From the NCBI GenBank assembly GCA_043753995.1, contig JAYUVP010000249.1:39684-103683 (forward strand): a stretch of 64,000 nucleotides of DNA, in the 5' to 3' direction. Numbering within the stretch: position 1 is the first letter of the stretch; each line of letters opens with the position of its first letter. The notes under the pieces are model-generated. The model was not told where the DNA came from, did not search any database, and was given only the letters and a program-made list of their open reading frames with translations. A program made the translations under genes and the position numbers. Shown here one piece after another: positions 3,328 through 5,352 of this stretch. This DNA comes from Fibrobacterota bacterium (GTDB lineage: Bacteria; Fibrobacterota; Fibrobacteria; UBA11236).

Positions 3328-5352
3328 ATGAAGCAGACCACGAATCGCCAGCCGAGCTCGTCGCCATCCCAAGGCGTTTTCCTTCAGCGTGAATGCGAGT
3401 CTTGCGGCAAGAAAAAAAAGCTGCAGCGCAAGGCCAGTTCATCGAGCCACTCCGAAGAGATTTCCCCTTTCGCCCGTGTCAATCAAGTCCTGGCTACCTC
3501 GGGGTCACCGCTCGACCCGGGGACGCGCGGTTTCCTGGAAACGGGGTTCGGGGATGCTCGCCCCCGTGTGGCGCCGGGCTTTGGCATGCAGGGCAAGCTC
3601 GCCATTTCTCCCACCACCGATCCGGCGGAGACCGAAGCCGACAATTTCAGCGAGCGGGTCCTTTCGCGCCAGGGAGGCCGTCCGCATTCCGCCAAGGCAC
3701 CCAACTTCGCTTCGATTCGCATTCATGACGACAGCGCCGCGCATGCTTCGGCGGCCGCCGTGGGCGCCCGCGCTTATACGGTGGGCCATCACATCGTCTT
3801 CGGGGCGGGGCAATTCAATCGCCATTCGCATCAGGGCCGAGGCCTCCTTGCTCACGAAGCCACCCATGTTCTGCAACAATCGGTCGCCGCGCCGGTCCTG
3901 CAGCGGGACGCCTGTTCCACCCTTCGAGGTGAAATCGAGGCGCATCCCGTTTACAAAGGCGTGCAAGCCACGGGAGGAGACACCGCCACCGAAGCCAAGG
4001 ACGTGCTGGACTTGTCGCAGGGCGGTAAATCTTGCGTGTCTGAACTCACGAAATACAAATTGCTCTACGATACCAAGGATTTGGCCAGCGGAGCGTCTTC
4101 CAGCGCTTCGACCGAAGCGGAGCGTATTCAGGCTATCAAAGATTCGCGCATCGCGGGAATCATCGCCAAGTCCAAGGAAAATACACGTCTATCCGCGGGG
4201 GAGGGCATGGGACGTAAGGGGGAAGAAGAGGCTGCGACGAGCGTGGCCGCTGGCTGGCGAACCGTCAAAAACAATGACAAACCCGTGGCCAAGGAATTTC
4301 AAATCAATACCGCCGACTTCAAAAACATTATGGTGAAAGCGAAGGTAAAGCTCTCACCCGCCAATGCCGCGGGGGATGTCGGTTCCCTTCCCGCCGATGC
4401 AAGTGATGTCGGCCGTATCGAAGGCCTGGAAGATGCGATTGAGAAAGTCGCCTCCACTCTGGGCTATTCGCTGAACCTGGAATTCGTGAAGGCCTCCGGC
4501 CCTGATGTCATGGAGGCCAATGTCGATTTGGGCGAGTGGATCAATTCCGGCAATTGGGTCGGCAAAGATTCCAAAGAGGATGTTGCGGCCGGTCTCGCTC
4601 ATGAATTGCATCATCGCTTGGGCTTACGCGATCGCTACGACTACATGAGCCATGCGAGCAATGAAACCATGAGCATACCCGATCGCATTCATTGGTTTCA
4701 TGTGCAAATGCTCAAAGGCGGCCTCGATCCCCTGGACAAGGTCTCGCTGATGGGAAGCGGGTCCGTGCTTCATCCCGATGACATTTGTCGCGTAGCGAAC
4801 GGGCTGATGGGCGACCTGCCCAAGGATGATGAAGCCAAGTTAGCGGCGGATCCCGCCTTGAAGGCTCAATTCGAAAAATGCCTCAAGGAAAGAAGCGGGC
4901 TGACCGCCGAAAAAGCCAAGCCCGCTCAGGATGCGGCCGCCGCCGCCGTCACCACGGCTTGGACCCATGTCTTCTTGGCCCCATTGGCCATGGCTGATTT
5001 TGCGCCTTTAGCCTTGAATTTGACGGGTGAAACCGTGACCCATTCTGACATCCGTACCCGCCTCACTAAAATTGCCGACAAGACACGGGCGGCGGTGCAA
5101 GTGATTTCCAATCGCGATAAATCTTGCGATAACGAGGACGGTCGCACGGGTTCGGGAGCTTTCCCTATCATGCTGTGCCCGGCTTTTTTCAATAAGTCCT
5201 TGCCCGAACAAACCGATGTGATACTACGGCATGCATCCGCCCTGACCTTGGGCACGCCCTTGAAACGCTCCGATATTTGCGCCAAATACGACTGCAAGAC
5301 GCAATGCGGCAAACCCGCCGATCGCTGGGTGCATTTCATCAAATGCGCTTAA
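3328..5352 (+). CDS. DUF4157 (zincin-like metallopeptidase) domain protein with a long C-terminal extension carrying a second HExxH motif; polymorphic-toxin / eCIS-cargo-like
   Basis: The N-terminal ~190 aa match the DUF4157 pattern: basic QRK stretch, PLDPGTRGFLETGFGDA, IRIHDDSAAHASAAAVGARAYTVGHHIVFGAGQF, GLLAHEATHVLQQ. The C-terminal ~480 aa are not recognisable, apart from GLAHELHHRLGLRDRYDY, four conserved-looking Cys near the end, and an Ala-rich stretch. Internal overlapping ORFs (3389..4336 and others) are high-GC shadows. Confidence 0.75.
   Translation: MKQTTNRQPSSSPSQGVFLQRECESCGKKKKLQRKASSSSHSEEISPFARVNQVLATSGSPLDPGTRGFLETGFGDARPRVAPGFGMQGKLAISPTTDPAETEADNFSERVLSRQGGRPHSAKAPNFASIRIHDDSAAHASAAAVGARAYTVGHHIVFGAGQFNRHSHQGRGLLAHEATHVLQQSVAAPVLQRDACSTLRGEIEAHPVYKGVQATGGDTATEAKDVLDLSQGGKSCVSELTKYKLLYDTKDLASGASSSASTEAERIQAIKDSRIAGIIAKSKENTRLSAGEGMGRKGEEEAATSVAAGWRTVKNNDKPVAKEFQINTADFKNIMVKAKVKLSPANAAGDVGSLPADASDVGRIEGLEDAIEKVASTLGYSLNLEFVKASGPDVMEANVDLGEWINSGNWVGKDSKEDVAAGLAHELHHRLGLRDRYDYMSHASNETMSIPDRIHWFHVQMLKGGLDPLDKVSLMGSGSVLHPDDICRVANGLMGDLPKDDEAKLAADPALKAQFEKCLKERSGLTAEKAKPAQDAAAAAVTTAWTHVFLAPLAMADFAPLALNLTGETVTHSDIRTRLTKIADKTRAAVQVISNRDKSCDNEDGRTGSGAFPIMLCPAFFNKSLPEQTDVILRHASALTLGTPLKRSDICAKYDCKTQCGKPADRWVHFIKCA

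Follow-up and report, generated by a model that had tools for sequence, protein, structure and literature searches.

Introduction

The DUF4157 domain was described by Zhang et al. 2012 (PMC3482391) as the ‘PVC-metallopeptidase’, the predicted releasing peptidase of toxins of Photorhabdus virulence cassettes (PVC) and other extracellular contractile injection systems (eCIS), and by Geller et al. 2021 (PMC8213781) as an eCIS core domain and toxin marker. Two tested toxins of this kind come closest to the gene analyzed here. The first, the eCIS-associated toxin (EAT) EAT4 of Mucilaginibacter sp. OK098 (IMG 2609591113), combines a central DUF4157 with a predicted peptidyl-Lys metalloendopeptidase, and kills E. 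coli and not yeast (PMC8213781). The second, Cgo1 of the AlgoCIS particle (ALPR1_12695, A3HTB0, 498 amino acids (aa)), resides in the tube lumen and consists of an N-terminal domain (NTD) that is disordered and required for loading, a DUF4157 domain and a C-terminal domain in which a second HExxH motif marks a predicted metalloprotease (Xu et al. 2022, PMC8894135). The gene that concerns us lies in a stretch of 64,000 nucleotides (nt) from a Fibrobacterota bacterium (contig JAYUVP010000249.1, positions 39,684 to 103,683 of the forward strand; hereafter the window), where an open reading frame (ORF) with an ATG start at 3328..5352 (+) encodes a 674-aa DUF4157 protein with a second HExxH motif. 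The original prediction, made from the sequence alone, held it to be an orphan and a candidate polymorphic toxin or secreted effector; the observation was confirmed and the interpretation partly supported. We propose that the protein is probably an orphan eCIS cargo or toxin whose effector is an aspzincin-like protease and whose disordered N-terminus serves to load it into a particle with genes elsewhere.

A DUF4157 protein with a conserved zincin-like protease unit

The translated ORF includes all peptides quoted in the original prediction, and the coordinates, both HExxH motifs, the RDRYDY string, the Cys-rich tail and the upstream fcl neighbor all proved as described there (translation, Pfam). 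HEATH occupies aa 176-180 and HELHH, followed by RLGLRDRYDY, aa 425-429; six of the 12 Cys residues fall within the final 75 aa. The domains follow each other in the order NTD, DUF4157, H, M and T, and the full-length AlphaFold 2 (AF2) model reaches a predicted local distance difference test (pLDDT) score of 85.7 and a predicted template modeling (pTM) score of 0.78. The DUF4157 (eCIS_core) zincin-like domain spans aa 47-193 (3466..3906, +), with HEATH at nt 3853-3867. PF13699 (DUF4157, now eCIS_core) matches aa 126-185 (E=1.5e-19, 70.4 bits versus a cutoff of 22), which bears out the predicted identity of this domain. Its HExxH motif is intact, with H176, E177 and H180 unchanged across 51 aligned homologs, and its fold resembles the solved DUF4157-type effector domain of VgrG2b (6H56).

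The C-terminal ~480 aa, which the original prediction considered devoid of a recognizable fold, give a compact AlphaFold model (pLDDT 93.7) made of a helical domain, a zincin M domain and a Cys-bearing helical tail. The H domain, aa 196-320 (3913..4287, +), is modeled by AF2 as an all-helical bundle, most block-mean pLDDT values exceeding 90, and always stands ahead of the protease module. The M domain, aa 321-500 (4288..4827, +), has a zincin metalloprotease fold, with the motif HELHHRLGLRDRY at aa 425-437 (nt 4600-4638) and a conserved S-x-M at aa 473-475 (nt 4744-4752). In 65 homologs, E372, H425, E426, H429, D435, Y437, H442, R453 and F457 (full-length numbering) are invariant, and conservation of M475 and C487 is 90% or higher; the catalytic motif is also invariant in the 51 homologs. 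The second HExxH is thus not a chance motif, given the invariance of H425, E426, H429, D435, Y437 and H442. We infer that H425, H429 and D435 are the putative zinc ligands and E426 the general base, with Y437 and M475 in supporting roles.

Sequence-based searches of the C-terminal region with Pfam, NCBIfam and PADLOC returned nothing usable; in Pfam, no peptidase family matched it even at E<=10, and no M35 model did. A PDB sequence search with the protein gave no match, and Foldseek against PDB no significant match. In comparisons of the M module, the figures were 10.6-11.3 for deuterolysin (1eb6) and likewise 10.6-11.3 for peptidyl-Lys metalloendopeptidase (1g12), 7.9-8.7 for the AsaP1 toxin (2x3a), 7.2-7.8 for Pra1 and 6-7 for metzincins (atrolysin, ADAMs, ulilysin, snapalysin). 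As modeled, the M module is a zincin endopeptidase fold nearest to the M35 aspzincins. Its motif in the window, HELHHRLGLRDRYDY, places an Asp at +6 after the second His and lacks GTxDxxYG, and the spacing HExxHxxGxxDxY is one that we take to be metzincin- or snapalysin-like. Because of this motif spacing and the lack of an M35 sequence model match, the module should not be filed as M35. We also considered M as a duplicated DUF4157 and ruled this out, since hhalign of N versus M pairs only the 15-residue active-site helix (probability 29%).

The T domain, aa 520-674 (4885..5349, +), is a helical Cys-bearing tail with pLDDT mostly above 90, present in only part of the family. The aligned family pattern LCPxFF...EQ...LL(R/H)EAAH...C..C...CG...W..F..C appears in the window as LCPAFF...EQ..ILRHASAL...C..C...CG...W..F..C, and the signature LCPxFF...xxHExxH corresponds to a strand plus helix. 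Since P0020, P0035 and P0043 keep an intact HExxH at this place, which is degenerate in most members (REAAH) and in the window (RHASA), the pattern suggests, speculatively, that T is a degenerate, inactivated third zincin-like unit.

The N-terminal region, aa 1-42 (3328..3453, +), is disordered, hydrophilic and basic, and its LQR..C..C..KKKKLQRK motif makes it a candidate eCIS loading sequence. It scores below 50 in pLDDT in the full-length AF2 model, and the first 45 aa have a mean Kyte-Doolittle value of −1.35 and a net charge of +5. An LQR..C..C..KKKKLQRK-type leader is common to the window protein and its eCIS-embedded homologs in the alignment; a disordered hydrophilic N-terminal loading region, a trait expected of eCIS cargo, is therefore present in the window protein. 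Inspection of sequence and hydropathy revealed no Sec signal peptide, transmembrane segment or N-terminal hydrophobic stretch in the 674 aa. The original suggestion that the protein is secreted is not supported in the Sec sense of the term.

A family found in several phyla and largely within eCIS operons

An exhaustive profile search over 1.84 billion representative proteins assigned 330 clusters to the C-terminal-module family at E<=1e-3, 160 of them at E<=1e-30. The family has no Pfam model, and its members are spread over several phyla, with or without DUF4157. It is only visible by exhaustive profile search: word-seeded searches yielded six homologs, all of them containing DUF4157, and then five. 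The 498-aa Algoriphagus protein Cgo1 was not found in a word-seeded search with the Bacteroidota H-M profile, a metagenome scan with subclade patterns recovered no relatives, and tblastn against plasmids gave no match. We defined architectures with four segment hidden Markov models (HMMs) built from the first alignment (N for DUF4157, H for aa 196-320, M for aa 321-500 and T for aa 520-674) in 153 proteins, namely the 150 best matches listed, to which three close relatives found in the first search were added. Within this set, 28 proteins are N-H-M-T, 50 are N-H-M, 40 are H-M alone and the remaining 35 are other forms, mostly M-only and many of them fragment-like; DUF4157 is thus fused in 78 of the 153, and H occurs together with M in the N-H-M, N-H-M-T and H-M forms. 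Conservation of the H-M(-T) unit across 330 clusters and several phyla does not agree with the variable toxin module originally envisaged. Separately, four stand-alone H-M proteins of ~305-320 aa from low-GC organisms (P0126, P0128, P0134 and P0144) start with lipoprotein-like signal peptides; a Sec-exported version of the H-M protease unit, free of DUF4157, therefore exists as well.

The genomic context of the homologs ties the family to eCIS. We examined 28 loci in species-representative genomes of Acidobacteriota, Beta- and Gammaproteobacteria, Bacteroidota, Actinomycetota and Polyangiaceae, and at 17 of them the family gene is inside an eCIS operon or next to one, its usual place being right behind the AAA+ ATPase gene. 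At 14 loci, at least two eCIS parts were detected within 10 kb by tblastn with operon proteins; one more has the ATPase, and Pfam scans revealed DUF6519 proteins, which carry the eBAP5 tail-fiber anchor domain of eCIS, directly upstream at two others. At three of the 28 loci the contig is too short for linkage to be assessed. The gene for P0003, the nearest relative beyond the sister species (full-length identity 61%), belongs to an eCIS operon, in which the end of the AAA+ ATPase gene lies on one side of it and the baseplate block on the other. P0005 (32% identity) lies within a complete operon in the order sigma-54 activator, sheath, tube, Pvc16_N, AAA+ ATPase, 115-aa ORF, P0005, two DUF4157 proteins, spike, gp25 and baseplate. 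The homologs at L002 and L032 are encoded inside eCIS operons. These contexts, together with the DUF4157 architecture, uphold the predicted affiliation with eCIS cargo and toxins. At most loci the family gene adjoins further DUF4157 genes, one to four in number, whose C-termini differ; the paralogs expected of a polymorphic toxin are therefore found beside relatives, and the window has none. The conserved ~115-aa ORF that separates the AAA+ ATPase gene from the N-H-M-T gene at L002:9657-10004, with equivalents at L003, L005, L007 and L009, has no Pfam match and no counterpart in the window.

The fixed slot with the AAA+ ATPase directly ahead of it and the baseplate block behind it, seen in Proteobacteria, Acidobacteriota and other loci, and the fact that the family gene is the sole DUF4157 gene at that slot in L032, could also be explained if the protein were not an injected toxin but an eCIS accessory or maturation protease that acts during assembly on itself, on the tape measure protein or on other cargo with DUF4157, the window copy serving a distal eCIS. 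This would suit a C-module that is conserved rather than polymorphic, as well as the releasing peptidase proposed by Zhang et al. 2012 (PMC3482391). We nevertheless regard it as improbable. AlgoCIS particles lacking the DUF4157 proteins Cgo1 and Cgo2 still assemble but are empty, and both proteins are luminal (PMC8894135); EAT4 and Cgo1 are toxic on expression; and a core assembly factor is not expected far from its operon.

A gene kept under selection at a variable site

The gene is flanked upstream by an fcl-like epimerase gene (2092-3027, −) and downstream by a convergent acyltransferase-like ORF of 337-385 aa (5412-6425/6569, −). The latter had been called an LpxL-type acyltransferase: the convergent ORF is there, its identity being weakly supported by a lysophospholipid/LpxL-type similarity far below cutoff (NCBIfam, E=7.5e-5). 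Likewise, the neighbors are those of the proposed cell-envelope neighborhood, which is not purely of that kind, as an rpmH-rnpA-yidD-yidC-mnmE cluster (6460-10777, +) adjoins it. Such clusters are usually found near the chromosomal origin.

Delivery genes are missing from this neighborhood, as the original prediction had stated and as tblastn and Pfam scans now support: among ~38 larger ORFs of the window scanned with Pfam, none encodes a sheath, tube, baseplate, AAA+ or type VI secretion system (T6SS) protein (VgrG, PAAR, Hcp, Tss). The occurrence of DUF4157 on VgrG2b raises the alternative of a T6SS-delivered effector, which we consider very unlikely. Besides the missing VgrG, PAAR, Hcp and Tss genes, the protein is not fused to a T6SS carrier domain, and no T6SS gene was recognized beside any homolog, either at the loci linked to eCIS by tblastn or in Pfam scans of ORFs from five of the remaining loci. 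There is no candidate immunity gene either. The gap to the convergent gene (5353..5411) measures 59 bp and therefore leaves no room for an immunity ORF, PADLOC detected nothing in the window, and the small conserved downstream ORF expected in related genomes was seen neither in the window nor in the two loci L001 and L032.

In a sister species (L001), the orthologous protein is 90% identical and the flanks are the same, and the islet between the flanks is different: by blastn, window positions 1-3064 correspond to L001 802-3865 and positions 3319-5353 to L001 9992-12038. The upstream intergenic region of the window (3028..3327) is replaced there by 6.1 kb with three extra genes, and a TfoX_N gene is inserted in the downstream gap. 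We therefore consider the site a variable islet. The locus thus combines a protease fold with relatives in eCIS operons and an islet that varies between sister species, rather than the housekeeping fold with conserved synteny that the original prediction had named as the finding that would speak against it. The three genes upstream of the sister orthologue (L001:4130-9901, at window site 3065-3318) encode a 538-aa secreted protein with an MVL-lectin domain, a 130-aa protein and a 1200-aa protein whose C-terminus matches the OTU cysteine protease family of Pfam (23.4 bits versus a cutoff of 23.3) and has a GDCLFYA motif; this stretch looks like an effector islet.

The gene itself is under strong purifying selection. 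Relative to the sister orthologue, the ratio of nonsynonymous to synonymous substitutions (dN/dS) is 0.093 at a dS of 0.76, with 0.03 for each of the two protease-like domains and a higher 0.23 for the NTD. The G+C content at third codon positions (GC3) is 0.655, compared to 0.59-0.70 in the neighbors, and composition accordingly gives no signal of recent horizontal acquisition. We conclude from this selection and from the neighbor-like GC3 that the gene has a function and did not arrive recently. The lack of a nearby eCIS and the variability of the flanking islet would also be found around the decaying, no longer functional remnant of an eCIS operon that had been lost, a reading to which we give almost no credence, the ORF being full-length in both species with all catalytic residues intact, dN/dS being 0.09 at a dS of 0.76 and GC3 being similar to that of the neighbors. 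Both T6SS delivery and decay are unlikely.

The same selection would be compatible with a former cargo protease in a genome without an eCIS, the particle having been lost or never present. The protein, with its DUF4157, aspzincin-like protease and degenerate third zincin-like tail, would then be selected for an eCIS-independent role, acting inside the producer or being freed by lysis or another route. The orphan position is indeed kept in two species at a dS of 0.76 under strong purifying selection, and the family has other orphans: L008, L011 and L026 (a Chitinophaga agrisoli isolate) are genuine orphans at ±10 kb, since their scanned neighbors are unrelated genes. Moreover, the stand-alone H-M proteins with lipoprotein-like signals show that the protease unit can work outside eCIS. 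On the other hand, the LQRK-type disordered leader is kept in the NTD, as is the DUF4157 domain, and these are typical features of loaded cargo; no alternative export signal is present, and the nearest outgroup sits in an eCIS operon. We therefore think an eCIS-independent role unlikely; if true, the locus would be a natural experiment on DUF4157 function by itself.

Elsewhere in the window, the ORFs recognized by Pfam encode cytochromes, a U32 peptidase, Ig-domain giants, two-component sensors, lipid-modifying enzymes, sugar-nucleotide enzymes and the Nuo operon, and Rfam recovered one tRNA and no rRNA gene. A lipid or secondary-metabolite cluster (10838-17567, −) contains DUF6999, a fatty-acid desaturase, two fatty-acid hydroxylases, a KAS I/II-type ketosynthase and a 625-aa DarB/StlD-type ketosynthase fused to a heme-oxygenase-like iron enzyme domain. 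Two proteins look like large surface or periplasmic proteins, one of 1071 aa (18490-21705, −) with Big_2 Ig-like and several cytochrome c domains and one of 1622 aa (25678-30546, +) rich in Big_13 and Big_2 domains. The products of 32803-37065 (+; 1420 aa) and 43809-45542 (+; 577 aa) have no Pfam match at E<=1e-3. Promoter and terminator scans of the region of the gene gave sites no more numerous than in shuffled sequence.

Proposed route and its implications

In our preferred reading, that of an orphan eCIS cargo, the protein would be made in the cytoplasm, its N-terminus would be recognized by an Afp15/Pvc15-type AAA+ ATPase, and it would be threaded into the tube lumen of a particle whose eCIS genes lie at another place in the genome. 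Contraction would lead to release and refolding, and the C-terminal protease would then cleave a protein of the target cell, with DUF4157 possibly acting as an accessory or processing domain.

Several points weigh against this reading. The distal eCIS is assumed, the window scan covering only 64 kb; within the window, tblastn with all proteins of two eCIS operons matches only the gene itself and a second DUF4157 gene was not found, and eCIS parts are also missing within 10 kb of the orthologue in the sister species. Such isolation is at odds with the observation of Danov et al. 2024 that 88% of EATs are encoded within ten genes of the operon. Neither HExxH motif of Cgo1 is needed for its toxicity in E. 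coli (PMC8894135), and protease activity may therefore not be the toxic principle. Finally, the likeness to Cgo1 and EAT4 appears to be one of shared architecture and annotation, not of sequence alignment.

DUF4157 is the main marker of eCIS payloads, and our analysis provides a fold and a domain map for a widespread C-terminal unit for which Pfam offers no model. It also shows that selection can maintain DUF4157 cargo-type genes at a great distance from any visible eCIS, a point of relevance to toxin-prediction pipelines based on operon proximity and to the choice of catalytic residues to mutate (E177, H425/E426, D435).

Comparison with known systems

Compared with the M35 aspzincins (deuterolysin 1EB6, GfMEP 1G12 and Aeromonas salmonicida AsaP1 2X3A), the window M domain is only 13-16% identical; theirs is the GTxDxxYG motif, whereas the window protein has HExxHxxGxxDxY with its Asp six residues past the second His. 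The window protein is also without a signal peptide or classical propeptide, would be made in the cytoplasm, and has its M domain set between helical domains. In the ‘PVC-metallopeptidase’ polymorphic toxins (PMC3482391) and VgrG2b, DUF4157 is the shared element; the C-terminal module of the window protein differs in being a conserved unit and not a swappable cassette.

The resemblance to Cgo1 is closer, both proteins having a disordered NTD, a central DUF4157 and a C-terminal second HExxH, and the 498 aa of Cgo1 fit the N-H-M form of the family (~490-510 aa). Cgo1 differs in being encoded in an eCIS operon, whereas the window protein has no adjacent eCIS and carries, in addition, a Cys-bearing T domain of 155 aa. 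EAT4 is also associated with an eCIS operon, and its membership in the same family is deduced from annotation and taxon, not from alignment. The H-M(-T) unit probably includes the tested toxins EAT4 and Cgo1. The window protein matches the eCIS cargo and toxin class by its architecture and by the genomic context of its homologs, and departs from it only in proximity to an operon (~10 genes). A gene of this class alone among housekeeping genes is mildly unusual and does not represent a new kind of system.

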